Shown here: positions 4,389-29,549 of the stretch, one piece after another | How positions within the stretch are numbered: the first letter of the stretch is position 1 | Layout: each line of letters begins with the position of its first letter | Origin: a virus | DNA length: 64,000 nt | Strand: one strand, 5' to 3' | IMG/VR virus record: IMGVR_UViG_3300045988_108496 | Location: 21,921-85,920 of that record | Made by a program: the position numbers and the translations under genes | Notes under the pieces: model-generated | Database searches by the model: none | The model's input: the letters and a program-made list of their open reading frames with translations, nothing else | What the model was told of the DNA's origin: nothing

Positions 4389-4395
4389 TTGTTTG

Positions 4396-4645: not shown

Positions 4646-4776
4646 CCCTGGTGCCCCACTCCATCACATTACACACATTATATAATATCACAGATATTAG
4701 AGTATTTGAGGCGGTGCCCACTCATTATAGATATTATAGAGCATCACTGATATTATGTTTTTTATATTGTTTGCAT

Positions 4777-5202: not shown

Positions 5203-5210
5203 CCATACCA

Positions 5211-5243
5211 GGGAGGCTCCGGCCTCCCCTATTATAGAAAACA
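5211..5243 (+). other. GC hairpin + CTATTATAGAA junction element
   Basis: GGGAGGC-TCCG-GCCTCCC followed by CTATTATAGAAAACA. Confidence 0.6.
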
Positions 5244-5279
5244 TATAACATCACCAACTTTATAAATACTTTACTGATT

Positions 5280-5954: not shown

Positions 5955-5967
5955 ACAATATATCATC

Positions 5968-6225
5968 ATGGCACCAACTATTACAATATCACGCACAACG
6001 AGTACACGTGCCCTTCTCACGGCTTTATTTGCCGTCGTCGTGTTACTCGTCAGTCGCACGGTAAAAAACGCTCTTGCAGCCCTTAAAACGACCCGCCAGT
6101 GGCTCCGGGCTCAGCACAGCTTTTATGGCCAGGATGGCGACCCTATCCAGTGCACCGGCTGGCAGTTCGTCGGCTACAACATCATGGCAGCAGTAGTGGC
6201 AATATTGCTCTGCATTAAGTATTAA
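5968..6225 (+). CDS. small membrane protein
   Basis: Two hydrophobic segments (LLTALFAVVVLLV and IMAAVVAILLCI). Tight spacing to the upstream gene. Confidence 0.5.
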   Translation: MAPTITISRTTSTRALLTALFAVVVLLVSRTVKNALAALKTTRQWLRAQHSFYGQDGDPIQCTGWQFVGYNIMAAVVAILLCIKY

Positions 6226-6281
6226 TTAACGCCTTATTATAGGCACATAAAAATATCACCAACTTTTAACATTTACAGATT

Positions 6282-6674
6282 ATGGCACAGATAGCATTAT
6301 TCAACGTAACCAATGATTCACAGTATTTACCACAGCGTCGCGACATGTTCAACGAGGCGCGATGGAAGGAGGCTAAGCGCCTCCTGGCACAGGCCCTGAA
6401 GTTGACAAGCAAGGAGGCAGGCAGATATACGTCGCGCTTCCTCCAGGATAGAATGGTCGGTGGGGACTTTCCGGCACCAGCCGGAGGCTATCACAACGGC
6501 ATCACGTGTATAGCCAACGGAGGCGAGCACAGCCAGCAGCGAGGCGAGTTCACAGTGTACGATATTATAGGCAGCTCGTATATTTATGAGGCACCGACAG
6601 GCGACATGTGTATAGCCAACATTCCGGAAGAAGGAGAAACGGAGTACTACCGTATATCGGTATTGGCTTATTAA
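6282..6674 (+). CDS. hypothetical protein
   Basis: GATTATGGCA start context shared with many genes here. A hairpin at 6687-6713 follows. Confidence 0.65.
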   Translation: MAQIALFNVTNDSQYLPQRRDMFNEARWKEAKRLLAQALKLTSKEAGRYTSRFLQDRMVGGDFPAPAGGYHNGITCIANGGEHSQQRGEFTVYDIIGSSYIYEAPTGDMCIANIPEEGETEYYRISVLAY

Positions 6675-6686
6675 ACCATCATTCAC

Positions 6687-6727
6687 GGGCTGCACCTGGC
6701 AGCAGGGCAGCCCCTATTATAGAACAC
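6687..6727 (+). other. GC hairpin + CCCCTATTATAGAAC junction element
   Basis: GGGCTGC-A-CCTG-GCAG-CAGG-GCAGCCC followed by CTATTATAGAACA. Confidence 0.6.
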
Positions 6728-6746
6728 TTTTAAAATTGAGAATATT

Positions 6747-7547
6747 ATGAACGAGATATTTGTCGAAGCAAAAAATCTTATTTGCAAAGATGGCGAGGTG
6801 TGGCTGTGGAAGTCTGATGGTATGAAGTTTGTGAACTTCTTCGCCACAAAGGAGGATGCACAGAAGTATATAGATCTGCATCATCAGTTTTGCCGTGAAC
6901 GCGGCATGAAGGAAGAAGCCTATAGCATCGGCACGGAGGCAGACTTTATGGCGGCTGCGAAAAAGTATGAAGCCGACAAGAAGGCCAACGAGGTGAAGGA
7001 GTACGGAAAGCACGTTGACGCATTGATAGAGCGCAAACAGCTCGAAATAAAGGCCCTGGACGGACTTGTTCAGGTGTGCCGAAAGTTTGATGGCAAGGTA
7101 CTTAATAAACGCTTCCATGATGCAGTGAAGGAGGCGACGGGCTTTTATAGCTCGTTCGGTGAATACAGCTTCGAGCTGAATTGCTACGACTATTACGACT
7201 TTTATCGCCCCAACGTCTCATTGTCCGTTGACTGGAGCCACGGCATCAACCGCTACACCGGCAAGAAGAAGGAGATGAATCCGAATGACTGGCAGTGGAA
7301 CACTGGCGACCGTCTGGATGCCGAAAAAGCGGTTGCCGTTATAGATTTTTACAAAAACGGTCGACTTGCCAAAATCGAGGAACTGAAGGCTTCAAAGAAG
7401 AAGTATGCAGCCTATCTGCGACTTGCACGAAAAGCGGAGGCGATAATGAAGGATATGGAAGGTTACGACTACGAGATTCGCGAGTTCGCAAAGGAGAACG
7501 CATTGAGCCAGTATAGCCGTCACTCATACTTCTGGAGGGGCTACTAA
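6747..7547 (+). CDS. hypothetical protein
   Basis: 266-aa ORF bracketed by two copies of the hairpin plus CCCCTATTATAGAAC junction element. Confidence 0.7.
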   Translation: MNEIFVEAKNLICKDGEVWLWKSDGMKFVNFFATKEDAQKYIDLHHQFCRERGMKEEAYSIGTEADFMAAAKKYEADKKANEVKEYGKHVDALIERKQLEIKALDGLVQVCRKFDGKVLNKRFHDAVKEATGFYSSFGEYSFELNCYDYYDFYRPNVSLSVDWSHGINRYTGKKKEMNPNDWQWNTGDRLDAEKAVAVIDFYKNGRLAKIEELKASKKKYAAYLRLARKAEAIMKDMEGYDYEIREFAKENALSQYSRHSYFWRGY

Positions 7548-7558
7548 ATCAACATCAT

Positions 7559-7598
7559 GGGCTGCTCTGGCAGCAGGGCAGCCCCTATTATAGAACAT
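7559..7598 (+). other. GC hairpin + CCCCTATTATAGAAC junction element
   Basis: GGGCTGC-TCTGGCAGCAGG-GCAGCCC followed by CTATTATAGAACA. Confidence 0.6.
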
Positions 7599-7617
7599 AT
7601 AAAAATTTGATAAAATC

Positions 7618-8295
7618 ATGGATAAGAAGAAATATATCGACGTATTGACTGAACAGGCAAACAAGCATCACAGACCGCAAGAAATGGCTCTGAGCGACTT
7701 CTGCGACTATCTTATAGAGTTTTTCAGTGTTGATTCTTTTAAGACTGGCACAACTGGTCAGCATTTCTTAAACTGCACACAAAAAAATCCCGCTTTTGCC
7801 GATCTTGCTCTTCTGTGGCTCAACGACGTAAAAACGGCGATGGAGCATGGCCAGTGGCTTGACGTGTTTGGCATACTGTACGAAGAAATGTATCTAAGCC
7901 GTGGCAAGGCATCGAAGACGGGTCAGTTCTTCACGCCTCAGAGCGTGTCGGACTTAATGGCACAGATCAGCGGCCTGGGAGCCGGCGACCACGGCAGGGT
8001 GAACGACTGCGCAGCAGGTAGCGGACGTTTGCTCCTGGCACATTATATGGAGAAGAGCAAACTGGACCATTCAGCCGGCAGACGCTTTGAGTATGTGGCA
8101 CAAGATAGCGATCCTATTGCTTGCAATATGTGCGCCTTGAATTTAATGGTACACGGCATGTATGGTCGTGTGGAGTGTCGCGACACATTGCGTATGAGTA
8201 AGCCGACGGTGGTGTATTATATCAACGAAGTAAAATATCCGTTTAACACGCCTTATTATAGCGTGAGAACGGTATTAGCGGAAAATCAAAAATAA
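7618..8295 (+). CDS. N6-DNA-methylase-like protein, short form lacking a canonical NPPY/F motif
   Basis: GQFFTPQSVSDLM, VNDCAAGSGRLLL (SAM motif I) and AQDSDPIACNMCALNLMVHG...RDTL match the HsdM/N6_Mtase layout. The protein ends 36 aa later, with only FNTPYY where NPPF is expected. Confidence 0.75.
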   Translation: MDKKKYIDVLTEQANKHHRPQEMALSDFCDYLIEFFSVDSFKTGTTGQHFLNCTQKNPAFADLALLWLNDVKTAMEHGQWLDVFGILYEEMYLSRGKASKTGQFFTPQSVSDLMAQISGLGAGDHGRVNDCAAGSGRLLLAHYMEKSKLDHSAGRRFEYVAQDSDPIACNMCALNLMVHGMYGRVECRDTLRMSKPTVVYYINEVKYPFNTPYYSVRTVLAENQK

Positions 8296-8348
8296 GGTAT
8301 CACGGGACGATTTGCCCCTATTATAGAACATTAAAAATACTAAGGATT

Positions 8349-8975
8349 ATGGCAAAGATATTTGTTAATGAGACTGTAGGTAAATTGCAAAGTTTTGTTG
8401 GATTCTACGATTCAATCTGGAGTCCAGATGATGATATATATTATGAGTGTGTAGAAGAAGATCTGGAGGAGGATGTTGATTTTACCTTCGACTATAAGCA
8501 GTACCAAAACGACATCTGCAAAGCATATACGGAGGTTTGGGAATTGTGGATGCAGAAGTTTATCAGCGACGATATAGAACTGGAGTTCGTAGAGGTTCAC
8601 AGTCCTCGATATTATAATTACGAAAATGATTCTTGTCGCGTGAAAATTCGCCTGACACAGGCTGCGGAGGATGCTATTATAGCCAAGATAGGAAAACACC
8701 GCGATCAGCTGGCTAAGTGGATAAAGGAAAACCACACAAGCTATGATGGCTTCTTTTCTAATCTATCCAACGACATCGACCAGTGGCCCAGTCGTTTGTT
8801 CGATAGCGACGAAACTTTTCAGCCTGCCTATCTCTTCTGTATGCTCTATTATATTGTCAAGGCAGAATATTTGGCGACAGGTGAGACAGAAAGCTTGGAA
8901 TACGAGGCTTGCGGTCGCATACGTACAGATATTAGTGTAACATCATATATGAAGGACATAGAAAAAGTTGCTTAA
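8349..8975 (+). CDS. hypothetical acidic protein
   Basis: 208-aa ORF with ATTATGGCA start context. No domain recognised. Confidence 0.7.
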   Translation: MAKIFVNETVGKLQSFVGFYDSIWSPDDDIYYECVEEDLEEDVDFTFDYKQYQNDICKAYTEVWELWMQKFISDDIELEFVEVHSPRYYNYENDSCRVKIRLTQAAEDAIIAKIGKHRDQLAKWIKENHTSYDGFFSNLSNDIDQWPSRLFDSDETFQPAYLFCMLYYIVKAEYLATGETESLEYEACGRIRTDISVTSYMKDIEKVA

Positions 8976-8979
8976 TTAT

Positions 8980-9342
8980 ATGAGAACATCTAAAACAATT
9001 CATTCTTTTCTGCTTAGTGAGCAGAAAGGACACACACTCCTCACGGCTCAGGAATATCCCTGGAGCGTGTTGCAGGTGATACCTACCACTCCGGCAGACT
9101 TCGACCGCACAGTGGCAGTTCTGGAGCAGCGAGGTTTTGTCGCCCATCACGACATCGACCGCACATTTTGCATCATCCACCTGACAAGCGGCGACCACGA
9201 CGGACAACACCCTGAACGGTATATCACCATCACTCAGAACAACTACATGCAGTACATCGAGGCATTGAAGGACACGATGGCACAGGCGGCAGTGTGGTAT
9301 GAGACGAATATTATAGAACCCTTTAAAAACGACAGATTATGA
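8980..9342 (+). CDS. hypothetical protein
   Basis: The track start at 8968 is TTG and overlaps the previous gene. The in-frame ATG at 8980 (AATTATATG) lies 5 nt after the upstream stop. Confidence 0.6.
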   Translation: MRTSKTIHSFLLSEQKGHTLLTAQEYPWSVLQVIPTTPADFDRTVAVLEQRGFVAHHDIDRTFCIIHLTSGDHDGQHPERYITITQNNYMQYIEALKDTMAQAAVWYETNIIEPFKNDRL

Positions 9343-9590
9343 GAGTACCGAAAGATATACCTAACGAATTGAAGCGTCTAATCAATGCTATATTGAAGCG
9401 TGATGGCGATTGCGAAGGTTGGCTTAATGGATATAATCGAAATCCATGGGGATTCACCTGGTATGGCTCCAGTATGATTTGTGAGCCTCTGTTTTGTTGT
9501 TATGGCTGCATTGGCTATGGCATCAATTATAAGGGGTACACAATTCATGTGGATAATGAGCTGTCACGAATAAAGATTTTTGATGAATAG
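9339..9590 (+). CDS. hypothetical Cys/Gly/Trp-rich small protein
   Basis: ATGA overlap with the upstream gene. Leader AAAAACGACAGATTATG is shared with the next two genes. Confidence 0.55.
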   Translation: MRVPKDIPNELKRLINAILKRDGDCEGWLNGYNRNPWGFTWYGSSMICEPLFCCYGCIGYGINYKGYTIHVDNELSRIKIFDE

Positions 9591-9625
9591 TATATTATAT
9601 AACCCTTAAAAAACGACAGAAAATT

Positions 9626-9910
9626 ATGGCAAGAATAATTATACTGAGTACCTGCGACGCATGGAAGTCGCGCAGTTCATTCCGACTTTACGGGACATGG
9701 GCGACTACGAAAGCTGGTTGTCGCCGACTGTTCAAGAAAATTGGTGAGCTTATTGAAGATGGCACGTTTGCTTATGAAGACGAAACATTGCCAGTGAACG
9801 AGCAGTTGGCGAAGTTTAAGGAAGACGGAAAAGGCTGCGTTACAGGATTTATTTATGATATTCAGTCTAAACTGAAATACGGAAATATGGAGTGGTCCGA
9901 GCTTAGATAA
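9626..9910 (+). CDS. hypothetical protein
   Basis: Shared leader AAAAAACGACAGAAAATTATG. No domain recognised. Confidence 0.6.
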   Translation: MARIIILSTCDAWKSRSSFRLYGTWATTKAGCRRLFKKIGELIEDGTFAYEDETLPVNEQLAKFKEDGKGCVTGFIYDIQSKLKYGNMEWSELR

Positions 9911-9956
9911 ACACCCCTATAACACAACCTCTTTTTAAAAAAAACGACAGAAGATT

Positions 9957-10187
9957 ATGAAATTTAAGACAGTAAAAACGATATTGATGGATGCTCAGAG
10001 CAATCAGCAGCACGGAGTAATAAAGATGCACAGCGACTGCGTGTGTTTCAGTTTTACCAACGGCGACAGCGGCGAGGACGACATCATCGCCTACAGCAGC
10101 GACACGGAGGTTATTTCGGTGTTAGGCAAAGCCGGCAACAGCTATATCGACTGCGAGGCGATAGAGTGCATTGAGGTGTATAAGTAG
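9957..10187 (+). CDS. hypothetical protein
   Basis: Shared leader AAAAAAAACGACAGAAGATTATG. The GC-rich structured island follows. Confidence 0.55.
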   Translation: MKFKTVKTILMDAQSNQQHGVIKMHSDCVCFSFTNGDSGEDDIIAYSSDTEVISVLGKAGNSYIDCEAIECIEVYK

Positions 10188-10410: not shown

Positions 10411-10442
10411 TTTGGTAGTTATAAATATTATTGCTACCTTTG
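10411..10442 (+). promoter_or_regulatory. Bacteroidota-type promoter, cassette copy 3 (diverged)
   Basis: TTTG at 10411-10414, a 20-nt spacer, then TACCTTTG at 10435-10442, followed by CAACAGATAAAGAAA as in copies 1 and 2. Confidence 0.7.
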
Positions 10443-11236: not shown

Positions 11237-11500
11237 ATGAAACAGTTTCTTTTACAATTGGGTAAGGAAAGTAAGGTATGTTCTAATATAGCAGAAGCCA
11301 AGGAATTTGTCTCTCGTTTTGGACATCTGACGAGTGCAGGAGAAAAGAGAATCACCGGTTTGTTTGATGGCACAATAGGCATAAACCGAGACTTCGCCTG
11401 GATGATGCCCAAGCATATTCCAGAATTAAAGAACTACCCTGAGCAGCATTGCAGAATGTGGATAAAACCATGTCCTGCGGACACCAACGAAGGAGAATAA
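11237..11500 (+). CDS. hypothetical protein
   Basis: Preceded by a second copy of the CAGCCCTAC...AAGCGGAATAATATG junction. Confidence 0.55.
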   Translation: MKQFLLQLGKESKVCSNIAEAKEFVSRFGHLTSAGEKRITGLFDGTIGINRDFAWMMPKHIPELKNYPEQHCRMWIKPCPADTNEGE

Positions 11501-13561: not shown

Positions 13562-15160
13562 ATGGCTAAAATTAAGAATTTTGAGGATTATTGCGCTTTG
13601 GTGGACGAAGTAAAGGTGCATGATTATAAGTATTTTGCACAGAACGCCCCCTCTATAAGCGACGAGGAATATGATGCTCTTTACTTCGCTTTGCAGGAAT
13701 ATGAAGACGCGCATCCGGATGATATACTGAAAGACTCACCTACCCAGCGGTGCTACAGCGAGAACGGCAACGGCAAGCGCACTGTTGCGCGTCGCACGGC
13801 GTGCCTCTCGATGAAGAAGCTGCATGATGCCAAGTCGGTAGTGAAATACCTGAGAGCGCAGCAGCGCACTGCCAATATCAGCAGTCAGGGCGCGAAGGTA
13901 GATATAGAGTGGAAGTTCGACGGCGAGACCGTGAGTCTTGTGTATCGCCGCGGCTCGCTCTCGGAAGCTACCTACGGACATGGCAAAGAGTTGTACGGCA
14001 TCGACTGCCTGGAACATATAAAGCATGTTCAAGGCGTGCCTGTCCAGGTGGACGTATGGAGCCAGTACGACCGAGTGGAGGTGAGAGGTGAGGTGATCAT
14101 CTCGCTTGAGGAGTTTGCCCGTTATAGCAAGGCTGGCAAATCGCCCCGTTCTACGAGTAACGGCATCATGGCGAAGAAAGTGGCTGTAAAGGACGAGTGC
14201 AAGCGTCTGGAGTTTCATCCCTTCCGCCTCATTATGGACGGCGTGATAAGACACACGGCTGCTATGCAGGCTCTTGAGCGTAATGGCTTTAAGACTTCGG
14301 GCTTCGTGTCGGCTCTCAATCTTGAGAAAACGGATGCCGAACTGGAGCAGGACATTGAGAACATCGTGTGCTCTGCCGAGGTGGAGCGTGAGTCGCTGCC
14401 CTACCCTACCGACGGTCTTGTGTTCAAGTTCGACAACTACGACTATTACGACCGTATAGGACAGACCGATCATGACGCAAAGTATAATTGCGCTTTTAAG
14501 TTTCGACCGGTGTTTAAGGCCGTAACCACATATCGCGGATACCATACTACGGTAGGCGAAAAGACTGGCAAGGTGACGTATGTAGCCGACTTTGACGAGG
14601 TGGAAATGAACGGACACCGTTTCGCCCATGCCAACTGCGGAAGCGAGCGCACGTTCCTCCAGAAAGACCTTGTGGCAGGTTGCAAGATAGAGGTCAGCTT
14701 GCACGGCGATGTTATCGTGTGTGTGGATAGAAAGATTGAAGACGAACCGGCTATTGATGAGAACCTTATCATTGAGGAAAAGCCTATCATTGAGGAAGAA
14801 TCTATTGCTATTGACGAGGAGCCTCTTGTTATAGACGAATCGGGATTTGTTCATCATCCGGAGCCTCACGTTATAGAGCCGGATATTTATCAGGATCGGG
14901 AGCCGGAAGCAGAGTCGGAGCCTATACCTCAGCTGAAGCCGAAACGTAAGCGTAATTATCCGCAGGTAGGCGAGCCGACGCTACGAGAGGAACGTGAAGA
15001 CACGTCGGCAAGGAGAAAGGATGGCAAACTGAGCGTAAAGAAGGTATTCGCCGGTGCGCTTGCTGTACTCATGTCAGCGTCAATGTTCGTAGTTGTGGTA
15101 GCATTCGCCGGAGCCGCCCTATTCTTTCTGCCGATGATGGGAGATGTTGCAAAGAAGTGA
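13562..15160 (+). CDS. ligA: NAD-dependent DNA ligase (LigA-like Ia + adenylation + OB domains) with acidic repeat linker and C-terminal hydrophobic anchor
   Basis: LigA hallmarks are present: HDYKYF..APSISDEEYDALY...DSPTQR (domain Ia), EWKFDG (motif I KxDG), EVRGEV (motif III), TDGLVFKF (motif IV), AFKFRP (motif V). No Zn-finger, HhH or BRCT follows. Instead there are IIEE/IDE repeats and VFAGALAVLMSASMFVVVVAFAGAALFFLPMMG. Confidence 0.85.
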   Translation: MAKIKNFEDYCALVDEVKVHDYKYFAQNAPSISDEEYDALYFALQEYEDAHPDDILKDSPTQRCYSENGNGKRTVARRTACLSMKKLHDAKSVVKYLRAQQRTANISSQGAKVDIEWKFDGETVSLVYRRGSLSEATYGHGKELYGIDCLEHIKHVQGVPVQVDVWSQYDRVEVRGEVIISLEEFARYSKAGKSPRSTSNGIMAKKVAVKDECKRLEFHPFRLIMDGVIRHTAAMQALERNGFKTSGFVSALNLEKTDAELEQDIENIVCSAEVERESLPYPTDGLVFKFDNYDYYDRIGQTDHDAKYNCAFKFRPVFKAVTTYRGYHTTVGEKTGKVTYVADFDEVEMNGHRFAHANCGSERTFLQKDLVAGCKIEVSLHGDVIVCVDRKIEDEPAIDENLIIEEKPIIEEESIAIDEEPLVIDESGFVHHPEPHVIEPDIYQDREPEAESEPIPQLKPKRKRNYPQVGEPTLREEREDTSARRKDGKLSVKKVFAGALAVLMSASMFVVVVAFAGAALFFLPMMGDVAKK

Positions 15161-15171
15161 GTTATGTTTTT

Positions 15172-15195
15172 GTGGAAATGTGGAAATGTGGAAGT
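15172..15195. repeat. 8-bp tandem repeat GTGGAAAT x3
   Basis: GTGGAAAT GTGGAAAT GTGGAAGT, directly after the ligase stop. Confidence 0.85.
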
Positions 15196-15423
15196 ACAGA
15201 AATACATAAATACACATTTTCACAAAAACATAAAACAATAAACACACAAACACATCCATACACAAACGCACACACACATAAATACATATATACATATATA
15301 CATATATACATGAATAAACAAAGCAACTAACAAATTAATCAACTAACAAAGCAATACACACACAAATACACTTATAAATAAATTAAGCAATAAATAAATA
15401 AACAAATAAATAAACAAATAAAT
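15196..15423. repeat. A/C-rich, G-depleted low-complexity tract with nested short repeats
   Basis: Only 5 G in 15201-15423 by my count. Contains (CA)n, ACATATAT x3, CAACTAACAAA x2 and AAATAAATAAAC x2.5. Lies upstream of the parA promoter. Confidence 0.85.
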
Positions 15424-15434
15424 GTGCATGGATA

Positions 15435-15466
15435 TTTGTTTATTTCAATTATAATTCTTAAATTTG
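15435..15466 (+). promoter_or_regulatory. parA promoter (-33 TTTG, -7 TAAATTTG)
   Basis: TTTG at 15435-15438, a 20-nt spacer, then TAAATTTG at 15459-15466. The context AATTCTTAAATTTGCAAC is shared with 21425 and 47300. Confidence 0.65.
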
Positions 15467-15539
15467 CAACGTATTACAGATTATACGTGTTCTGTATATT
15501 TGAATAGTATCATCAATTTTAAAATATACTTTATAGAAG

Positions 15540-16406
15540 ATGGAAAGACTTAGAGAAGTGCTTGCCTTTGTAAACCACAAAGGCGGTGTAGGAAAAACAA
15601 CAACGGTGCAGAGTTTAGCGACCGGATTGCGCCGTTTTGGTAAAGGAAAATTCGGAGTGGATGCCGATGGACGCAAACGCTTGCCGCGTGTGCTCATTAT
15701 CGACCTTGACCCGCAGGCGTGTGCCTCGTTCCTCTTCGGATGGAGCGAGACTCAGAACGCAGGTAAGCCTACCGTTTACGACGCATTGGTACAGCAAAGC
15801 AATTTGCCCGTTTATCAGGTACGTGAGGGAATTTACCTCGCGCCAGCTGCGTCGCAGCTTATATCCATAGAACCGTTTCTGAATCAGCGGGCATTGCCTC
15901 GCAAAGCCCTTTGTAAATTGCTCGCCAAGCCACTGAACGAGTTAGCAGGCACCGAACTGGCAGACGGAGGCGTGAACACCGTTATGGATGCTTTCGACTA
16001 CGTGCTTATAGACTGCCCACCGGCTATGTCGTTGCTTACATACAATGCTCTCACAGCCGCTACGAGTGTAGTGCTGCCCGTGCAGCTCGAAGTGTTGGCA
16101 ACAAAAGGTATTGCCGAAATCATCAACGCCATCGAGGAAACACGTGAGGATCTTAATCCCGATCTTGACATTCGTGGCTTGCTGATGGTAATGAGCAACG
16201 ACCAGACCAACGCCACAAAGGAGTTTAAGGCATATCTCGGCGAAAAGTATCAGGACTATATGTTTGACGCTTATACGCGCCGCGACACGAAGATGGTCGA
16301 AGCGCAAGCTATGCGAGAAGACATCTTTGCTTATGCACCGTATTGCAGGGTAGGGCAGGACTATGAGCGTTTTACCAAGGAGATAATCAACAGTTTCACT
16401 TTTTAA
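15540..16406 (+). CDS. parA: ParA/Soj-family partition ATPase
   Basis: Deviant Walker A FVNHKGGVGKTTT. IIDLDPQ and VLIDCPP motifs. Promoter at 15435-15466. Confidence 0.9.
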   Translation: MERLREVLAFVNHKGGVGKTTTVQSLATGLRRFGKGKFGVDADGRKRLPRVLIIDLDPQACASFLFGWSETQNAGKPTVYDALVQQSNLPVYQVREGIYLAPAASQLISIEPFLNQRALPRKALCKLLAKPLNELAGTELADGGVNTVMDAFDYVLIDCPPAMSLLTYNALTAATSVVLPVQLEVLATKGIAEIINAIEETREDLNPDLDIRGLLMVMSNDQTNATKEFKAYLGEKYQDYMFDAYTRRDTKMVEAQAMREDIFAYAPYCRVGQDYERFTKEIINSFTF

Positions 16407-16417
16407 TATTATAGGGT

Positions 16418-16873
16418 ATGGCAAGAGAAATGAAGAAACGAGTTGCGCATTTTGGTCTGGAAAATTCAGACGCTATAGACGAGAACGAGCGCATTTTGGA
16501 AGCAGGTAGACAGCAGCGTCAGGAGAACAGGGAGAAAAAGGGAAGTGGAGAAGCGGCAGCGAATACTGTCACTGCTTCGTCCGCAGAAGTTCCGGCGACT
16601 GAAAAGCCGACTGTTTCTACAACAACGTCTGAGACCGAGACATCGACAACTATAACTCCTGTAGCAGATCAACCGGCAACCACATCATTCAGCAACGATA
16701 TTGCTGCGAACATGCGTAAGCCGAAGGGTAAGAAGACCGAGAATGGCATCACCATATACGTGCCGATGGAGTATTACGAGCGTATCGCCTTGATGAAAAT
16801 GCGCACTGGCGTGCCTATCAAGGATTTGGCGCTACAGGCTGTGATTGAGTTTTTGGACAGAAACAAAATGTAA
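16418..16873 (+). CDS. ribbon-helix-helix centromere-binding partner (ParG-like) with disordered T/S/E-rich N-terminus
   Basis: Lies directly downstream of parA. The C-terminal segment ITIYVPMEYYERIALMKMRTGVPIKDLALQAVIEFLDRN fits a beta-alpha-alpha RHH pattern. Confidence 0.6.
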   Translation: MAREMKKRVAHFGLENSDAIDENERILEAGRQQRQENREKKGSGEAAANTVTASSAEVPATEKPTVSTTTSETETSTTITPVADQPATTSFSNDIAANMRKPKGKKTENGITIYVPMEYYERIALMKMRTGVPIKDLALQAVIEFLDRNKM

Positions 16874-16951
16874 AATCTAAAGTCTGATGTACACCGATAT
16901 GGACAACTTTGAAAAATGCGAGGCGATATTCAACGAGGACTTGTAATATGT

Positions 16952-16982
16952 AAGGTAAAATCCTACTAAAGTTTTTTACCTT
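16952..16982 (+). terminator. AT-rich hairpin after the par operon
   Basis: AAGGTAAAA-(13 nt)-TTTTACCTT. A weak, AT-only stem. Confidence 0.35.
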
Positions 16983-17030
16983 AAAGTTTACGAAGTCACT
17001 ACAAAAGTGTGCTGTTTTTGGTTTGTAATA

Positions 17031-17113
17031 CCTACGGATTTGTTTACCAATACCTACGGATTTGTTTACTTAAACCTACGGATTTGTTTACCAACTCCTG
17101 CGTTTTTGTTTAC
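17031..17113 (+). repeat. four direct 22-bp-spaced iterons (CCTACGGATTTGTTTAC)
   Basis: Copies at 17031, 17053 and 17075, plus a diverged copy at 17097 (CCTGCGTTTTTGTTTAC). Confidence 0.9.
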
Positions 17114-17277
17114 CTCACTGTAGGTAACTGATTGATAATCAATACGCTCAAAAACCTTAATATAATATAATTATAAACTATGGATTTTTCGTTTTGAAAG
17201 AATAAAAGAATAGTTTATGTTACATTATATTAAGGGAAATTGGAGGAGTTGAAAATCAACGAGTTAGAGCATACGAA

Positions 17278-17360
17278 GTAAACAAATATATAGGAGTTGG
17301 TAAACAAAAACGTAGGTTTTGATACATAAAAACGTAGGTTTAAGTACATAAAAACGTAGG
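17278..17360 (-). repeat. four inverted-orientation iterons at 22-bp spacing abutting rep ATG
   Basis: GTAAACAAATATATAGG (17278), GTAAACAAAAACGTAGG (17300), ATACATAAAAACGTAGG (17322), GTACATAAAAACGTAGG (17344). Confidence 0.9.
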
Positions 17361-17362
17361 TT

Positions 17363-18955
17363 ATGGCAAAGAAAGCGAAAAAAGAAGACAATGAAGGCAA
17401 ACTTCAACATGCCTTGAACGAATTGCGCTGGATAAACACACCTGTCAACTATACATCATACGCTAAAAGCTATTCTCTCATACAACAGGACGTTATGCTG
17501 TTGGTAAGCGGACGACTGCAAGACCATTTTGCCAAGTTTCTTAACGAACATCGTTATTTAAGCAAGGAACGACCCAATGGAGGTATAACGAAAGAAGACC
17601 TGTTGAAGATGGGACCGATACGTTTGCGCCTGGCTGACTTCGGTATAGACAGCAGCCATTATGACGAGTCGGTAAAGGTGATAAACCAAATGAAGAAGAT
17701 AGAGTTTCATTTACCGCGTTTCGATCCAGAGACAGGACTTAGAAAAGGTGAGGACTATATGCCTATATTCAGCAAGATATTTATCCCGAAGAACTTCACA
17801 TCACGAGAAGGAGAAGATTTCAACTATTCGGGAGACGGAGAAACAAAGATAGACGAGGACGGACAGGAAGTGCGCAAGTTCCGTCGTGACGGATATATCG
17901 AGGTTACAATAAACATTGAGGTGGCAAAAGCCGTGTTTGATATGGCAGACGGATATTTCAATCATCTTGAACGTATCGCCTATTTCTGCAATTCGGCTTA
18001 CACGTCACGTCTTTATCTTCTGTTGATGAAGTACGCGAGCAGGGGGCAGATGCACCCTGCTATAGATTATCGTGAGCTGAAGGAAGCATTGGGTATGTTT
18101 AAGGTCGATGTGGAAAAAAGTGAACAACCCGCAAAGGTTGTCACTACTGAGAAATATCAAAAGTTCTCACAGTTCCGCAAACAGGTGTTGGACGTGGCAC
18201 GTGGTGACATGGAGCGACTGTGCGAGGAAAACAAGATAGAGATAATGCTATCGTGCATTGACCCCAACAAAAAAGGCTATGAACCTATTTATAGGGGTAG
18301 CGTCAAACGAGGCAATCCTGAAAAAATCAAGTTTCATATTAAGCGCACACCGTTGGGCTTGGCGAGAGAATTGGAGTTGCATCGTGGTTCGTCAGAAAAA
18401 CGTTTGTGCGCCAAGTTAATGTCATTATATCCTACGCTCGACGAAGAACGGCTCAAGGCGTTTGTTGCTGACGTTCCCGAAGACCTTTGGAACGACTTTA
18501 AGGCGTATGCCTATAATGGAGTGCCGAAAGCGGTAGAGCAACCGCATAGATGGAATGGCACGGTGGAGGATTTCGTGTTTTACATTATGGAGCAATGGAT
18601 AAAACAGCATAGTGTGAAGCATGAAGCCCAGCAGCAGACGTTTGCGTTTGTCGAAGCGGAGGAAGTGAAGCCGAAACCGGGCGAAAAGGAGTGGCAGAAT
18701 CTTTTGACCATGCTTGACGGTGAAACAGGCGAGTGGCTGGGTAGTGAGATGTCGGACTTGTTGAAAAAAGTGATGCTTGATGATTATGACGGCAAGACTG
18801 TCCGGATTATTGCGACTCAGGAGCAGGTGACAGCCATAGAGAATCTATTGGAGAGCAATGTACTACAAGGTAAGTTTAGCCAATTACTTGGCTATTGCTT
18901 TAAGGGCAATAAACGTAAAAAGGTCTGTTTGGATTATAAAAAACTTAACAAATAG
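17363..18955 (+). CDS. rep: Rep_3/RepB-like plasmid replication initiator
   Basis: Eight 22-bp-spaced iterons lie immediately upstream, the last abutting the ATG. Winged-helix-like segments YSLIQQDVMLLVSGRL and FCNSAYTSRLYLLLMKY are typical of iteron initiators. Confidence 0.8.
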   Translation: MAKKAKKEDNEGKLQHALNELRWINTPVNYTSYAKSYSLIQQDVMLLVSGRLQDHFAKFLNEHRYLSKERPNGGITKEDLLKMGPIRLRLADFGIDSSHYDESVKVINQMKKIEFHLPRFDPETGLRKGEDYMPIFSKIFIPKNFTSREGEDFNYSGDGETKIDEDGQEVRKFRRDGYIEVTINIEVAKAVFDMADGYFNHLERIAYFCNSAYTSRLYLLLMKYASRGQMHPAIDYRELKEALGMFKVDVEKSEQPAKVVTTEKYQKFSQFRKQVLDVARGDMERLCEENKIEIMLSCIDPNKKGYEPIYRGSVKRGNPEKIKFHIKRTPLGLARELELHRGSSEKRLCAKLMSLYPTLDEERLKAFVADVPEDLWNDFKAYAYNGVPKAVEQPHRWNGTVEDFVFYIMEQWIKQHSVKHEAQQQTFAFVEAEEVKPKPGEKEWQNLLTMLDGETGEWLGSEMSDLLKKVMLDDYDGKTVRIIATQEQVTAIENLLESNVLQGKFSQLLGYCFKGNKRKKVCLDYKKLNK

Positions 18956-18960
18956 TTTCA

Positions 18961-18998
18961 CACCGCTTACCCATTCCCAAAGGTAGGCGGTGTTTTTT
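18961..18998 (+). terminator. intrinsic terminator after rep
   Basis: CACCGCTTACC-CATTCCCAAA-GGTAGGCGGTG followed by T6. Confidence 0.8.
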
Positions 18999-19065
18999 AG
19001 TATGTCCTGTTTGTGTTGGCGACTTTTTTTATTTTTGTACACAGAAACCAACAAGACATAAATAT

Positions 19066-19662
19066 ATGGGAAAAATCAAAATCATTACATTATGGCTTAT
19101 GGCTGTAATCACGTTAATGAGCTGCGCCGCCTCAAGAAAGGTGGAGCAGGGGAGTAGTGAGCAACGGCGTGATAGTGACGTAACTATCGTTAAGGACAGC
19201 GTGGTGAAGTCGGAGACGATGACGGACAGCAGCGCCGTTAGAGTCACGGACGAGAATCATACATCTGGCACTATGACCGACAAGGGTAGTAACGAGGAAA
19301 CTATCACTGAGCGAGTGACTGAGAGTACGGATGCCCAAGGCAACAAGACCACCACCACCGATCGAACCGTACACCGCAAGGGCGACTATGAGCGCAATGC
19401 CACATACGAGGCACGACTGAAGCATCAGGAAGAGATAATGACGCGGATGCAGCACGTAATAGATAGCTTAGTGTTGAGTAACAGACTGAACGCGGGTACC
19501 CACTGGGCAAAGAAGGATAGCACGAATGTGGTGAAGGAGAAGAACACAAAGAATATAAAGTCTACGTCAGAATGGTGGCAGCTTGCTCTGATTGTTTTCA
19601 GTGTTTCTTCTCTTGTTCTTTGTTTTAATACCTCGTTTTATAGTAAAAAGAATAAAGCATAA
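19066..19662 (+). CDS. lipoprotein with C-terminal transmembrane helix (unimolecular-spanin-like architecture)
   Basis: The N-terminus MGKIKIITLWLMAVITLMSCAASRK carries a lipobox. The C-terminus WWQLALIVFSVSSLVLCF is a TM helix. The middle is polar and T/D/E-rich. Confidence 0.65.
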   Translation: MGKIKIITLWLMAVITLMSCAASRKVEQGSSEQRRDSDVTIVKDSVVKSETMTDSSAVRVTDENHTSGTMTDKGSNEETITERVTESTDAQGNKTTTTDRTVHRKGDYERNATYEARLKHQEEIMTRMQHVIDSLVLSNRLNAGTHWAKKDSTNVVKEKNTKNIKSTSEWWQLALIVFSVSSLVLCFNTSFYSKKNKA

Positions 19663-28304: not shown

Positions 28305-28357
28305 TTCAAAATGCGCAACGCGCATAATTCAAAACTCAAATTTCAAAATTCAAAACT
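28303..28357 (+). repeat. AATTCAAAA-ATGCGC-N3-GCGCAT-AATTCAAAACTCAAA element, copy A (dnaN leader)
   Basis: Near-identical to 32298-32338. Contains a short palindrome flanked by TTCAAAA repeats. Confidence 0.75.
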
Positions 28358-28358
28358 T

Positions 28359-29549
28359 ATGAAGTTACAAGCCCTATCATCCAAAGCCCTGCACGCTGCC
28401 CTTAACAAGTCGGCAAAGTGTATCGGCTCTAAAAATCCCATTGCCATTTTCGACAATGTGCTGCTGACCTGCAACGAAAGCGGTCTGTTCTTTCTTACGT
28501 CATCTACAGCAGAAGCACAGCTCACCATCCCGGCGCCCATTTCGTTGTGCGGTGGCAAGTTTGATAAGCCGATAGTGCTACCTATAAAGATGCTCAGTTC
28601 GCTGTTAGGCACACTGCCCGACTGCGTTGTCACTCTTGATATAGAGGAGGGTGGATCGTCGTTCACTGTAGAGTATTGCACCGGCAGTGGCGACAACGTT
28701 AAGTCGGGCAAGGCTAAAATGGCTTATTTCTCGGGCAACGAATACCCTCAGATGCTATTGCCCAAGAGTGAGGCTTCAACAATTATTTGCCTGCCTTTTC
28801 AGTTGTTCCATTCTGTTATAGATACTGCTGATAAGTTTGTTCAGATAGACGAACTTCGCCCCCAGCTTTCCAGCTTGTGTGTAGACATTGCCGACGACCG
28901 CTCAGAGGTGGTCTTTGCGGCTACGAACGGACATACGCTTGCAAAGATAGTACACAGCAATGATCCGCAGAAGGGTGGCAGTGATTTCTTCCGTAGTGGC
29001 GAGCCTCGCAAGACGCTTATCCACCGCAATTACTTCCGCACGTTGTCAGCCTTTGACGGATGCGAGGAGATCAGCATCGAGAACGACGGAAACACCATCC
29101 GTTTTTCGTCGGGCGACATCGAACTTATTTGCAAGCACATGGAGGGCAAATACCCTAACTACAGCGGCGTAATTCCGAAGTCCAACCCCTACTTCGTCGT
29201 ATTTGACAAGAAGGAAATGACTGACATCCTGCGCCGTGTCAGTCTGTTCTCAAGTAGCGCAAGCAATCTTGTAAAGGTAGAGAAGAACGGCATTTTCATC
29301 AACGTTTCTGCGAGTAACATGGATTTTGCTTTGTCCGGCGAAGACCAGGTGCTCATATCTAACGCAGAGTGCCCCGACAATTTCCGCATCGGATTGAAGT
29401 CGTCGGCTTTTCAGACCTGTATCAACTCCATTCCGTCGGACACCATACGAATGCAGTTGCTTGACGCTTCGCACGCCGTAGTGCTCACCGCTGACACACC
29501 TGCGCCTAAAGTGATGACGCTTGTGATGCCGATGCTGCTTGACGATTAA
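28359..29549 (+). CDS. dnaN: DNA polymerase III beta sliding clamp
   Basis: About 397 aa. The N-terminus MKLQALSSKALHAALNKSAKCIGSKNPIAIFDNVLLTCNESGLFFLTSSTAEAQL matches the DnaN pattern. ATG 28359 is used, because the track start at 28311 lies in a repeat leader. Confidence 0.85.
   Translation: MKLQALSSKALHAALNKSAKCIGSKNPIAIFDNVLLTCNESGLFFLTSSTAEAQLTIPAPISLCGGKFDKPIVLPIKMLSSLLGTLPDCVVTLDIEEGGSSFTVEYCTGSGDNVKSGKAKMAYFSGNEYPQMLLPKSEASTIICLPFQLFHSVIDTADKFVQIDELRPQLSSLCVDIADDRSEVVFAATNGHTLAKIVHSNDPQKGGSDFFRSGEPRKTLIHRNYFRTLSAFDGCEEISIENDGNTIRFSSGDIELICKHMEGKYPNYSGVIPKSNPYFVVFDKKEMTDILRRVSLFSSSASNLVKVEKNGIFINVSASNMDFALSGEDQVLISNAECPDNFRIGLKSSAFQTCINSIPSDTIRMQLLDASHAVVLTADTPAPKVMTLVMPMLLDD

Follow-up and report, generated by a model that had tools for sequence, protein, structure and literature searches.

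How does a tailed phage persist in its host when no integrase can be detected in its genome? The locus that raises this question lies in the 64,000-nt stretch analysed here (the window), part of an ~86-kb tailed phage of human-gut Prevotella/Segatella. The genome of this phage contains a full plasmid-style cassette for replication and partition (Table 1). A complete maintenance cassette with no detectable integrase makes plasmid persistence most likely; on the data at hand, all of them metagenome assemblies, the phage most likely stays in its host as a circular plasmid of low copy number. With reasonable confidence we regard 15195-19000 as the cassette that maintains, in its plasmid state, a siphovirus-like Prevotella/Segatella phage that is temperate and does not integrate, and the element as a probable phage-plasmid. 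This lifestyle is already known and is poorly documented for Bacteroidota (PMC7969092; PMC8008677). By these two papers the original prediction was fair in calling it seldom described for Bacteroidota phages; since then, however, crAssphage has been proposed as a phage-plasmid (PMC10983915), and in a 2026 bulk survey 'Bacteroida' is one of the hosts predicted most often for phage-plasmid-like elements (PMC13221032).

Table 1. Features of the cassette and of the candidate immunity region, in window coordinates
Feature	Position	Strand	Description
Cro/CI-type HTH gene pair	2112-3081	-	112 + 157 aa, divergent from the rightward early genes
Candidate partition centromere/operator	15195-15425	.	AT-rich, strand-asymmetric repeats of ~8-bp period, unit ~ACAYAAAY, just upstream of the parA promoter
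Bacteroidota-type promoter motif	15435-15466	+	TTTG-N20-TAAATTTG, 74 nt upstream of the parA ATG
parA	15540-16406	+	288 aa; small Walker-type partition ATPase without N-terminal DNA-binding extension
parB-like partner	16418-16873	+	151 aa; putative centromere-binding protein
Lone alternative-type iteron	16992-17012	+	one perfect copy, GAAGTCACTACAAAAGTGTGC, the iteron of the other Rep type of sister phages
Left iteron array	17030-17113	+	4 direct 18-bp iterons, ACCTACGGATTTGTTTAC x3 and TCCTGCGTTTTTGTTTAC, 22-bp period
AT-rich spacer	17114-17277	.	164 bp, presumed DNA-unwinding region
Right iteron array	17278-17362	-	4 iterons in opposite orientation, 22-bp period
rep	17363-18955	+	530-aa iteron-type initiator
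Putative intrinsic terminator	18960-18999	+	hairpin and T-run after rep, ACACCGCTTACC...GGTAGGCGGTGT TTTTTT

The replication and partition cassette

Iterons were searched for with the pattern ACCTACGKWTTTGTTTAC at up to 3 mismatches on both strands of the whole 64 kb. Exactly 8 matches were obtained against 0.12 expected, and none of 100 shuffles reached 8. The left iterons start at 17030, 17052, 17074 and 17096 on the plus strand and the right ones lie at 17278, 17300, 17322 and 17344 on the minus strand, just as predicted (four direct and four inverted iterons at exact 22-bp spacing). The last iteron ends at 17361/2, directly before the rep ATG at 17363, so that the initiator gene does abut it. 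The 'classical autoregulation layout' read from this contact fits in part, since two full inverted arrays flank the AT-rich region here rather than direct iterons with a half-iteron operator. The right array is presumed to serve both as Rep operator and as an origin arm, and its position suggests that rep may be autoregulated. The left array is kept in 10 relatives with a Rep at least 80% identical.

The spacer between the arrays, expected to be AT-rich, about 165 bp long and to hold a palindrome, has a GC content of 27.4% compared to 46.4% for the window. The palindrome ATTGATAATCAAT is found at 17131-17143 and another, TTGAAAATCAA, at 17249-17259; a 16-nt inverted repeat (17155-17170 / 17220-17235) is 94% complementary. 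In the alignment of relatives the blocks TGATAATCA, TAATATAATATAA and ATTATATTAAGG are invariant, and TGA(T/A)AATCA occurs at the same location in origins of other Rep types. These features are consistent with an unwinding region. A DnaA box is absent from the origin. The lone iteron upstream of the left array has no second match in the window when up to 3 mismatches are allowed (0 expected). Four sister loci (L054, L056, L058 and L061) use this 21-mer as their 4+4 iteron, and their origins reciprocally hold one window-type iteron each.

Rep combines a divergent Rep_3-like WH1-WH2 core (~aa 90-340) with a ~190-aa C-terminal extension that classical Rep_3 proteins lack. Its own Pfam scores are sub-threshold (Rep3_N, E 0.0047, 17.7 bits where 22.4 are needed; Rep3_C, 0.083). 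NCBIfam RepM gave 2.4e-6, the Rep family profile matches R6K pi (2nra) with E 5.5e-6, and the top PDB match found by Foldseek for the AF2 model (pLDDT 71) is RepE (2z9o; prob 0.99, E 5.8e-3). In the Rep homologues P0071/74/76/84/86, PF01051 and/or PF21205 are present, and initiators of Segatella plasmids and large extrachromosomal elements (LEE) are 28-32% identical to Rep. The remote profile and fold evidence thus places the protein among Rep_3-like initiators, as had been proposed for an initiator of this size, with the reservation on its Pfam scores. The hairpin read from the sequence behind rep is probably an intrinsic terminator at the end of the module; it is missing from the output of the terminator scan because its loop is longer than the scan allows.

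ParA was recognized by Pfam (AAA_31, E 5.7e-37; CbiA, 1.3e-13) and by PHROG_164 'ParA-like partition protein' (E 5e-46), and matched NCBIfam partition RepA/ParA at ~1e-19, under the equivalog cut-offs. Together with the motif KGGVGKT at residues 13-19 of the translation, these matches confirm a ParA with deviant Walker A. The gene that follows is the predicted small partner. It opens with a helical peptide that is conserved, continues in a disordered linker rich in Pro, Thr and Glu and ends in a strand-helix-helix of ~45 aa; in the AF2 model helices span 2-12 and 18-42, disorder 47-95, an extended stretch 108-116 and helices 117-130 and 134-149. Searches of Pfam and NCBIfam with this protein, whose family has 958 homologues, gave no match. 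Only one profile alignment covers the full length, the one with the RHH protein ORF56 (2k9i; E 1.2), and RHH proteins make up 6 of 25 weak Foldseek matches (MatP, PutA, CopG, Reg576, Arc; all E>3). Judged from sequence and model, the strand-helix-helix is probably an RHH domain, an assignment that is consistent with these matches at E values short of statistical proof.

The repeats upstream of parA were detected by TRF at period 8 (15.2 copies, score 74), in DNA of 19-28% GC with a GC skew down to -0.92. Across ~55 related loci the repeat unit tracks the type of the ParB beta-strand (ITIYV with ACAYAAA; IVVNV/IVVDV with TACGT; VKVTI with CGTATG), with two exceptions (L028, L039). This pairing persists where ParA is 92-93% identical to that of the window (L035/L036/L044): the array follows the ParB beta-strand, not ParA. 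Because of this co-variation the array is a candidate centromere. Between it and parA lies the promoter motif, whose consensus we take to be of the Bacteroides sigma-AB type; TTTG-N17-23-TAnnTTTG has 6 matches in the 64 kb, this one included, against 1.7 expected, and relatives of differing ParA/ParB types keep the -7 block ATTATAATTCTTAAATTTGCAAC ahead of parA.

Exchange of specificity cassettes and a proposed mechanism

Four direct iterons, an AT-rich spacer and three to four inverted iterons abutting rep form a layout common to several Rep types, and across ~70 related loci the iteron sequence co-varies with the Rep type. The Rep/ori and ParB/centromere cassettes have been exchanged independently between otherwise homologous phages. 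Relative to the window, L054 has a ParA of 94% and a Rep of 36% identity, and L022 a ParA of 45% and a Rep of 88% identity. In L054 the swap takes in exactly the origin and the DNA-binding core of Rep (window 16877-18392), and Rep is mosaic against L054/L056, with 22-25% identity over aa 91-340 and 68% over aa 341-460. Selection to escape plasmid incompatibility would yield such a pattern.

The arrangement suggests how the cassette may work. Rep monomers would bind the eight iterons on both sides of the AT-rich region, and the 22-bp period, equal to two helical turns, would set the bound Rep on one face of the DNA. The AT-rich region would then melt, the replisome be loaded and theta replication follow. 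Because the origin has no DnaA box, loading may use the conserved Rep C-terminal extension instead of DnaA. As the rep-proximal array ends at the rep ATG, Rep bound there should repress its own gene, and pairing of iterons between copies (handcuffing) would keep the copy number low. For segregation, the ParB-like protein would bind the 8-bp-period array beside the parA promoter through its C-terminal RHH domain, both repressing its operon and forming a partition complex. The Walker-type ParA would move such complexes apart on the nucleoid in type Ib fashion.

Genome context and lifestyle

The window is 100% identical to three independent contigs (85,931, 85,999 and 86,280 bp) and runs across their ends, which fall at 4567, 13502/13556 and 55991. 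These bridged ends give a circular map and in effect do the work of an assembly-graph check of circularity; a 55-bp terminal overlap was deduced for Scaffold_96. Virion DNA that is circularly permuted or has terminal redundancy also gives circular assemblies. The module occurs on hundreds of contigs, none above 147 kb, and the ~86-100-kb architecture is conserved in dozens of contigs from IMG/VR and hundreds from metagenomes. Whole contigs of ~94-100 kb fall into the bins of Prevotella MAGs. The isolate-derived plasmid collection and the GenBank phages yielded no family member.

The prediction of a plasmid-type maintenance module inside a tailed-phage genome was borne out. The module is homologous and syntenic with that of a real circular plasmid, NZ_CP085934 of S. 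copri DSM 18205, and intact phage genes encode a tape measure, an S49 prohead protease, tail-fibre proteins and a holin. Of these, the tape measure and the protease had been named at the outset and are supported. A Rep of 96% identity is recorded under 'Siphoviridae sp. ctMOb8'. The large terminase is a weak PHROG match only (E 4.9e-4), which leaves the terminase claim insecure, and the gene read as capsid (54678-55970) stays a candidate, with no match in any library searched. Portal and major capsid were identified by no library, and the structural genes fall into separate blocks. The module is neighboured by genes for a NAD ligase (13562-15160), an Rv2179c-like exonuclease and a 1222-aa DUF5906-like protein; a clamp gene (28311-29549) and a PriCT_2 primase-like gene (47353-48432) are further replication genes. 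The HTH gene pair (HTH_3/HTH_26, E 1e-7 to 2e-6; weak RstR-repressor match, 1e-4), with Bacteroidota-type promoter motifs nearby at 2500-2531 (-) and 3542-3573 (+), may form an immunity switch between lysis and lysogeny. Neither a toxin-antitoxin system nor a multimer-resolution function was recognized in the element.

Integrase, recombinase and transposase families were absent from the precomputed Pfam tables for the called genes across ~86 kb and from our own scans of ~40 proteins. About 3 kb of the genome outside the window were covered via close relatives, a 944-aa gene there from about codon 210 onwards. The statement that no integrase is visible thus extends from the window to the called genes read of the ~86-kb genome. 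Of the extrachromosomal prophage lifestyle originally proposed, the module and the missing integrase stand, and from them we infer the plasmid prophage state itself.

An ordinary integrating prophage, with plasmid-like genes as accessories and an integrase or transposase that is too divergent or sits in the small unread part, is nevertheless very improbable. About half of the ORFs have no family assignment, so a novel integrase is conceivable, ~630 bp of the 944-aa gene are unread, and a related 146.7-kb contig, inspected up to 20 kb, exceeds one genome. Yet tyrosine and serine recombinases and DDE families are easily detected, and none was found in the called genes read; the three ~86-kb contigs are circular permutations without host flanks, and among hundreds of contigs with Rep or ParB homologues the 0.2-1 Mb and >1 Mb classes are empty. 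Slightly less improbable, and still doubtful, is a plasmid with a defective or domesticated phage gene set (tailocin-like or cryptic) that would replicate and segregate as a plasmid and form no infectious virions. The weak terminase match, the missing portal and major capsid assignments and the scattered structural blocks would fit it. The intact tape measure, protease, tail-fibre and holin genes speak against it, the conserved ~86-100-kb architecture argues for purifying selection on the phage genes, and poor annotation is usual for Bacteroidota phages.

More weight, though it too is unlikely, belongs to the view that Rep and iterons are the sole vegetative origin of a virulent or carrier/pseudolysogenic phage with no regulated low-copy plasmid prophage, in which ParAB would do no more than position genomes during replication or stabilise a transient episome. 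Lambda O, which binds repeats in ori-lambda, offers a parallel. The module lies amid replication and nucleotide-metabolism genes, so Rep/ori could serve vegetative replication, and a second initiator or origin was not positively identified. Benler et al., facing the same question in another Bacteroidota phage family, leaned towards lytic (PMC8008677). Against this stand the homology and synteny of the entire cassette with that of a bona fide plasmid, a dedicated putative centromere-binding protein that co-varies with a repeat array, the Cro/CI-type repressor genes and the phage-sized whole contigs co-binned with Prevotella MAGs; independent swaps of both specificity cassettes fit incompatibility and are not needed for a lytic origin. 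A phage-plasmid therefore remains our preferred reading.

Comparison with known systems

CrAssphage (Carjivirus communis, Bacteroidales) is likewise a gut phage without integrase that was argued to be extrachromosomal from plasmid-like replication genes (PMC10983915, where the term 'iteron' does not occur). It differs as a podovirus-like crassvirus, reported to be linear in a title cited in PMC12823448, and is unrelated in sequence: the DNA of the region analysed here, the Rep and the capsid candidate of our phage had no match in the phage collection. Temperate actinobacteriophages that lack an integrase and carry parABS (Dedrick et al. 2016, cited in PMC11652158) are reported as siphoviruses in which a partition cassette replaces the integration cassette and several parABS specificities give incompatibility groups. 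They have parABS alone, with replication left to phage functions, whereas our phage also has a plasmid-type Rep and iteron origin; host phylum and partition type differ as well.

Type Ib systems (TP228 ParF-ParG-parH, pB171 par2, pSM19035 delta-omega) resemble the phage cassette in three ways. The deviant Walker A lies at the very N-terminal end of a small ParA; the partner is likewise small, its N-terminal tail flexible and its C-terminal part a strand-helix-helix; and short repeats of ~8-bp period are arrayed upstream of the operon promoter and overlap it, the phage centromere being a candidate. The architecture of parH is one of tetramer boxes. The phage partner differs in having no significant match to ParG, omega or any RHH family, and the 288-aa ParA is longer than ParF. 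The initiator shares a remote WH1-WH2 core with F RepE (prob 0.99), R6K pi (E 5.5e-6) and pPS10 RepA, and like classical Rep_3 replicons the phage has ~22-bp-period iterons beside an AT-rich region and a rep that adjoins its own putative binding sites. In contrast to these, Rep falls below the Pfam gathering thresholds, is about twice the size at 530 aa with a separate conserved C-terminal region, and is paired with an origin that has no DnaA boxes and a putative operator made of a full iteron array, not an inverted half-iteron pair.

Initiators related to the phage Rep also sit on large extrachromosomal elements of the Segatella copri complex (PMC10635906). These elements and the closed, circular 58.9-kb plasmid unnamed2 of S. 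copri DSM 18205 (NZ_CP085934) differ in carrying metabolic genes and no phage genes, and the phage capsid candidate had no match in PLSDB. The plasmid nevertheless has the same order, with parA followed by a small ORF, by intergenic iterons of 22-bp period that run up to the rep start, and by rep. Its ParA is 40% and its Rep 28% identical to those of the phage, and the two share a bipartite iteron form, GTAAAC-N5/6-GTrGGTT. It has at least 7 rep-proximal iterons and only 2 distal, inverted ones compared to 4+4 in the phage; its Rep (431 aa) is ~100 aa shorter and lacks the conserved 341-460 region (19% identity), and the small ORFs are unrelated in sequence.

P1 is a tailed temperate phage kept as a low-copy circular plasmid, with an oriR/RepA replicon (incC and incA iterons) and ParA-ParB-parS. 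No sequence relationship to P1 proteins is detectable. P1 partition is type Ia (large HTH-ParA, ParB, downstream parS), whereas here it is type Ib-like (small ParA, probable RHH partner, candidate centromere upstream); two inverted iteron arrays flank the AT-rich region, an incA-like second control array downstream of rep was not found within the window, no Cre/lox-like recombinase or addiction module was recognized, and the origin has no DnaA box. The likeness lies in the plan. Both have an initiator of the iteron-binding type whose iterons directly precede its gene and overlap its expression signals, an adjoining Walker-type partition operon, and replication and partition specificity variants among relatives, as in P1/P7. 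Judged from its genes, our phage would also share with P1, a member of the phage-plasmid class (PMC7969092), the life of a tailed temperate phage as a low-copy circular plasmid.

Partition genes and the candidate centromere

Three open reading frames form the coding part of the module, and all were found where the original prediction had placed them. ParA matched Pfam AAA_31 (E 5.7e-37, covering residues 6-211), and in PHROG it fell into the family 'ParA-like partition protein' (E 5e-46). The protein starts with MERLREVLAFVNHKGGVGKTT, so that the deviant Walker A motif that had been claimed (KGGVGKT, residues 13-19 of 288) lies near the N-terminus, without an N-terminal DNA-binding extension. 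A Walker-type protein with KGGxxK[ST] and without an N-terminal DNA-binding domain corresponds to type Ib.

Features of the maintenance module, in window positions
Feature	Position	Strand	Size	Basis
Repeat array, period ~8 bp	15195-15425			
Bacteroidota-type promoter motif	15435-15466			
parA	15540-16406	+	288 aa	ORF read
Partner ORF	16418-16873	+	151 aa	ORF read
Left iterons (four)	17030, 17052, 17074, 17096	+		pattern scan
AT-rich spacer	17114-17277		164 bp	
Palindrome ATTGATAATCAAT	17131-17143			
Right iterons (four)	17278, 17300, 17322, 17344	-		pattern scan
rep	17363-18955	+	530 aa	ORF read

At its N-terminus the partner protein has a helical peptide that is conserved; a disordered linker of biased composition follows, and the C-terminal 45 aa, again conserved, are predicted as extended strand, helix, helix. 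Neither the protein nor its C-terminal profile had a significant match in Pfam, NCBIfam or PDB. The sole full-length profile alignment was to the RHH protein ORF56 (non-significant E of 1.2), and the weak Foldseek matches of the model (E>3) were repeatedly RHH proteins, namely MatP, PutA, CopG, Reg576 and Arc. The small RHH partner had been predicted; the ORF with its C-terminal strand-helix-helix is present, but all RHH matches are non-significant, and the fold is probably RHH.

A conserved Bacteroidota-type promoter, TTTG-N20-TAAATTTG, is located upstream of parA, and the window has six motifs of this type in all (1.7 expected). They were found with a TTTG/TAnnTTTG pattern, which replaced a sigma-70 promoter scan; that scan performed no better than on shuffles, and the sigma-70 model is unsuited to Bacteroidota. 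The promoter motif is adjoined by an array of ~8-bp repeats. The repeat unit varies in step with the partner's beta-strand: ITIYV occurs with ACAYAAA, IVVNV or IVVDV with TACGT, and VKVTI with CGTATG. The pairing also persists at loci with a ParA of 92-93% identity to that of the window; over all loci compared it has two exceptions (L028 and L039). The co-variation appears to be the signature of a centromere/operator that would be read by an RHH strand, as in type Ib systems, and a candidate repeat-array centromere beside the operon promoter is, in silico, the type Ib arrangement.

Along the rightward early region, three further motifs of the Bacteroidota promoter type, nearly identical to one another (TTTGGyrGTkwTAr...TACCTTTG), recur at 3542-3573, 4844-4875 and 10411-10442; by their look they are one family of early promoters of the phage. 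An RNA element in 15000-19200 was considered and rejected, as Rfam gave just a spurious sub-threshold mir-466 match on the CA-rich repeat. In a distant relative (L062, Rep 34% identical) an apparent tRNA gene was seen by eye ~120-200 nt upstream of parA, between a repeat array and the gene.

Iteron origin and Rep initiator

The iteron ACCTACGKWTTTGTTTAC, allowing up to three mismatches, has exactly eight matches in the 64 kb, compared to 0.12 expected, and none of 100 shuffles reached eight. The predicted origin was recovered in full: four direct and four inverted copies, always with a period of 22 bp, flank a spacer of 27% GC (window, 46%) containing the palindrome, and one base separates the end of the last copy from the rep ATG. 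Tandem iterons at about two helical turns, beside rep and an AT-rich region, are the layout of Rep_3 origins. Relatives keep this design, with four direct iterons, an AT-rich spacer and three to four inverted iterons abutting rep. In both IMG/VR and MAG loci the iteron sequence co-varies with the Rep type. Iteron ACCTACGGATTTGTTTAC accompanies Rep proteins at least 80% identical to that of the window, CCTCCCTATTTATGTACC those of ~57% and GAAGTCACTACAAAAGTG those of ~37% identity.

A DnaA box (TTATCCACA, up to one mismatch) was not found in the origin (16874-17362). DnaA boxes are common, though not universal, in origins such as those of F, P1, pSC101, RK2 and R6K. Just two perfect 9-mers are present in the window (9548-9556 and 11457-11465, minus strand), both in the small-gene early region outside the iteron origin, and matches with up to one mismatch are enriched window-wide (25 vs 14.4 expected; 0 of 100 shuffles reached 25).

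Two palindromic TGA(T/A)AATCA sites (17133-17141 and 17250-17258) lie just inside each iteron set; the background of TGAnnnTCA is 17 sites in 64 kb. They are invariant in close relatives and occupy the same position in six origins with unrelated iterons (L053, L054, L056, L058, L061 and L077), which suggests a binding site for a host or phage factor common across Rep types. Just left of the iteron array, at 16992-17012, the window also carries a single perfect copy of GAAGTCACTACAAAAGTGTGC, the iteron of an alternative Rep type. Sister phages with that Rep type (L054, L056, L058 and L061) have it in 4+4 copies, and their origins in turn contain, at the corresponding position ~380-400 nt upstream of rep, a single perfect copy of the iteron of the window type, ACCTACGTTTTTGTTTAC. 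The single foreign iteron may be a recombination scar, or a cross-talk or exclusion site between co-resident elements.

Rep had been described as a Rep_3-like initiator. Its Pfam scores are sub-threshold, both for PF01051 Rep3_N (17.7 bits, cut-off 22.4, E 0.0047) and for PF21205 Rep3_C (13.6 bits, cut-off 21.1), and the match to NCBIfam RepM (E 2.4e-6) reached 27 bits with a cut-off of 250. Remote homology was nevertheless found. A family profile of 22 Rep homologues (A1) matched R6K pi (2nra) over the WH2 region with an E of 5.5e-6, and the two best PDB matches of the AlphaFold (AF2) model (pLDDT 71) were chains of the RepE dimer 2z9o (prob 0.99 and 0.98, E 5.8e-3, TM 0.39). In addition, five homologues, 40-47% identical, carry PF01051 and/or PF21205 in precomputed tables. 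Because of this profile, model, RepM and homologue evidence, Rep was treated as a divergent Rep_3-type initiator with a C-terminal extension of ~190 aa, despite the sub-threshold Pfam scores. Of the HMM families named in the prediction, ParA was thus recovered, but Rep_3 stayed below threshold and RHH had no Pfam match. The fourth-best PDB match of the Rep model was DnaA domain I (4tps_B, prob 0.97, E 0.26, TM 0.63). The match came with no aligned range and was put in the last ~90 aa of Rep from the alpha-alpha-beta-beta-alpha-alpha-beta topology of the model. Residues 341-530 (18383-18955) are a possible built-in helicase-recruitment module.

Initiation could proceed as follows. Once loaded on the eight phased iterons that flank the AT-rich region, Rep monomers would melt this region. 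Recruitment of the helicase would probably fall to the conserved C-terminal part of Rep, a step proposed because the origin is free of DnaA boxes. The rep-proximal iteron array would occlude the rep expression signals and lead to autorepression; this step is read from position, since the pattern scan of the window gave no canonical TTTG/TAnnTTTG-type promoter for rep. Iteron pairing would limit the copy number. ParB would bind the 8-bp repeats, repress parAB and build a partition complex, which ParA would segregate.

Related loci and exchange of cassettes

In tblastn searches Rep matched just Segatella/Prevotella plasmid initiators (21-32% identity). The circular closed 58.9-kb plasmid of S. 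copri DSM 18205 has the same order of ParA, small ORF, iterons and Rep, and its ParA is 40% identical to that of the window. At least seven of its iterons, at a 22-bp period, end at the rep start, two inverted copies lie upstream, and the form GTAAAC-N5/6-GTrGGTT is common to the plasmid and the window. This synteny supports the original claim of a plasmid-type maintenance module. The other tblastn matches were initiators encoded on large extrachromosomal elements known from the S. copri complex (PMC10635906).

Alignment of Rep recovered 61 IMG/VR loci, mostly on contigs of 50-102 kb, and 12 MAG loci, and prevalence amounts to hundreds of contigs. The MAGs were mostly Prevotella, Prevotellaceae and other Bacteroidales, with one labelled Clostridia, and several of these loci were on phage-sized contigs. 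Nearly every locus with available flank has the genes of ParA and its partner upstream of rep. The GenBank phages of INPHARED contained no near-identical match to the region and no protein-level match to Rep; the supposed capsid gene had no match in either INPHARED or PLSDB. Thus, no cultured or isolate-borne relative was found. A 96%-identical Rep is already present in the BFVD/UniProt viral set, from the uncultivated 'Siphoviridae sp. ctMOb8'. A related module also lies within the first ~13 kb of L088 (ERZ1026786 NODE_10, 146,662 bp, read to 20 kb), a contig much longer than the ~86-100-kb genomes, in which parB and rep are separated by an additional ORF of 188 aa; it may be a variant of larger size, a chimera or a copy that is integrated. 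Membership in the Flandersviridae, to which genome size had pointed, was rejected, as these phages encode polA and dnaG and have no partition genes (PMC8008677), whereas here no polA was seen and parA is present.

Comparison of single loci separates the two cassettes. One relative (L054) has a ParA 94% and a Rep 36% identical to those of the window, and another (L022) a ParA of 45% and a Rep of 88% identity. The non-homologous block of L054 covers exactly window 16877-18392, that is the origin and the Rep DNA-binding core, between flanks of 77-86% identity. Rep itself is a mosaic, with residues 341-460 being 68% identical between Rep types whose cores (residues 91-340) share 22-25%. Since the iterons co-vary with Rep type and the exchanged block comprises the iterons and the Rep core, specific Rep-iteron recognition is indicated in silico. 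Replication and partition cassettes move independently.

Phage genome, lifestyle and known systems

The original prediction listed terminase, tape measure, protease and capsid genes in the same contig. The tape-measure-like protein (2249 aa, 39781-46530; PhageMin_Tail, PHROG 1e-21) and an S49 prohead protease (7e-38) were recovered, but the terminase call is a single weak PHROG match, and the capsid assignment found no counterpart; a portal was likewise not identified. PDB sequence searches with the terminase and capsid candidates, a 1222-aa protein and a 585-aa protein gave no match. Further phage-type genes in the window encode a holin, a clamp, an NAD-dependent ligase, a primase-like protein, RtcB, ThyX and MazG, and tail and tail-fibre proteins are encoded just outside. 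Two HTH genes of the Cro/CI type (2112-3081) run leftward, divergently to the early genes, which run rightward, and are flanked on both sides by Bacteroidota-type promoter motifs. Structural, lysis and packaging genes (packaging via the weak terminase match) are on the same replicon as ParA, the ParB-like protein, Rep and the iterons, a combination expected of phage-plasmids in the sense of PMC7969092.

The tail-fibre block (1184-9981 of the related locus L008, with 944-, 339-, 345-, 1174- and 750-aa genes) lies upstream of window position 1 and, on the circular map, ~30 kb from the tape-measure-like gene. In two relatives (L007 and L009) a tape-measure gene immediately precedes the tail-fibre genes. 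In the window's phage, structural genes form separate blocks interleaved with replication and nucleotide-metabolism genes. Cargo unusual for a phage includes a full-length LysR-family regulator (57019-57948), an RtcB RNA ligase (61788-62963), guanylate kinase with ThyX and MazG (48600-50460) and a PAPS-reductase-like gene (35596-36510); a Band_7 protein, an acetyltransferase and two DNA methyltransferases are encoded just outside the window (L006).

Exact-protein look-ups retrieved three contigs of 85,931, 85,999 and 86,280 bp from different samples, all 100% identical to the window and free of host flanks. The window crosses their ends at 4567, 55991 and 13502/13556, and one has an inferred 55-bp terminal overlap. 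As the contig ends are bridged, the map is circular, which in effect answers the circularity check proposed with the prediction and corresponds to either a circular molecule or circularly permuted DNA. One of these contigs (scaffold_96) differs from the window by 190 bp in copy number at a tandem-repeat region (4425-4643) and is otherwise 100% identical. Integrase, serine recombinase and transposase domains were absent from the called genes across ~86 kb in precomputed Pfam tables and in our own Pfam, PHROG and NCBIfam scans (Phage_integrase, Recombinase, Resolvase, rve and DDE), within HMM detection limits. Of the ~22 kb outside the window, ~19 kb were read in a contig with a 100%-identical window copy and the remaining ~3 kb in two close relatives, minus ~630 bp of one 944-aa gene. 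The predicted lack of a visible integrase therefore extends to the called genes read across the ~86-kb map, and a novel type of integrase is unlikely.

The element is probably a temperate, non-integrating phage-plasmid; a lytic phage in which Rep and the iterons serve as vegetative origin is a less likely alternative. The circular map fits plasmid and permuted virion DNA alike and does not distinguish between them. Indirect signs of an extrachromosomal prophage are that the ~86-kb contigs are circularly permuted and lack host flanks, and that Prevotella MAG bins include contigs of phage size; the lifestyle is inferred from assemblies. Independent turnover of both specificity determinants would be expected from selection by incompatibility between co-infecting plasmid prophages, and a purely lytic origin would have no need for it.

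A broader joint reading of the phage-plasmid lifestyle, which we regard as improbable when taken as a whole, would make these phages a very prevalent obligate plasmid-prophage family of human-gut Prevotella/Segatella. Incompatibility would be set by two exchangeable cassettes, one made up of the Rep DNA-binding core and the iterons, the other of the ParB RHH and the centromere repeats. In the initiator, a Rep_3 core of common descent with Segatella plasmids and large extrachromosomal elements would be joined to an added, conserved C-terminal module, whose terminal ~90 aa are weakly DnaA domain I-like and which would recruit the helicase directly for DnaA-box-independent initiation. The single rival-type iteron would serve cross-talk of co-resident phage-plasmids (exclusion or copy-number coupling).

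If the extrachromosomal lifestyle is true, it would explain why these ~86-100-kb phages so often assemble as closed circles from bulk metagenomes, and integrase-reliant lifestyle predictors would mislabel these phages. The ~3.8-kb cassette would then be a candidate stable low-copy replicon for Segatella/Prevotella, with several compatible variants. Genetic tools for these genera are scarce.

Enterobacteria, Bacillota, Vibrio and Actinobacteria are well-known hosts of phage-plasmids. These elements form a numerous class and are thought to be under-detected in Bacteroidota because their plasmid functions are seldom recognised in that phylum (PMC7969092). A phage-plasmid nature has been proposed for crAssphage (PMC10983915), partition genes were not found in another abundant gut Bacteroidota phage family (PMC8008677), and in a 2026 survey of phage-plasmid-like elements, Bacteroidia-type hosts were among the most common (PMC13221032). 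In the literature we found no description of the replicon anatomy of this phage family. The value of the present case lies in a clean dissection, which defines the origin, the initiator, a candidate centromere and the partition pair for a genus that ranks with the most abundant of the gut, in its prevalence and possible use as a Segatella/Prevotella replicon, and in its natural specificity variants and clear evolutionary link to real Segatella plasmids. P1 has a functionally alike arrangement, whereas that of the window is built from parts unrelated to those of P1, a divergent initiator of the Rep_3 type, with relatives on Segatella plasmids, and a type Ib-like partition system.
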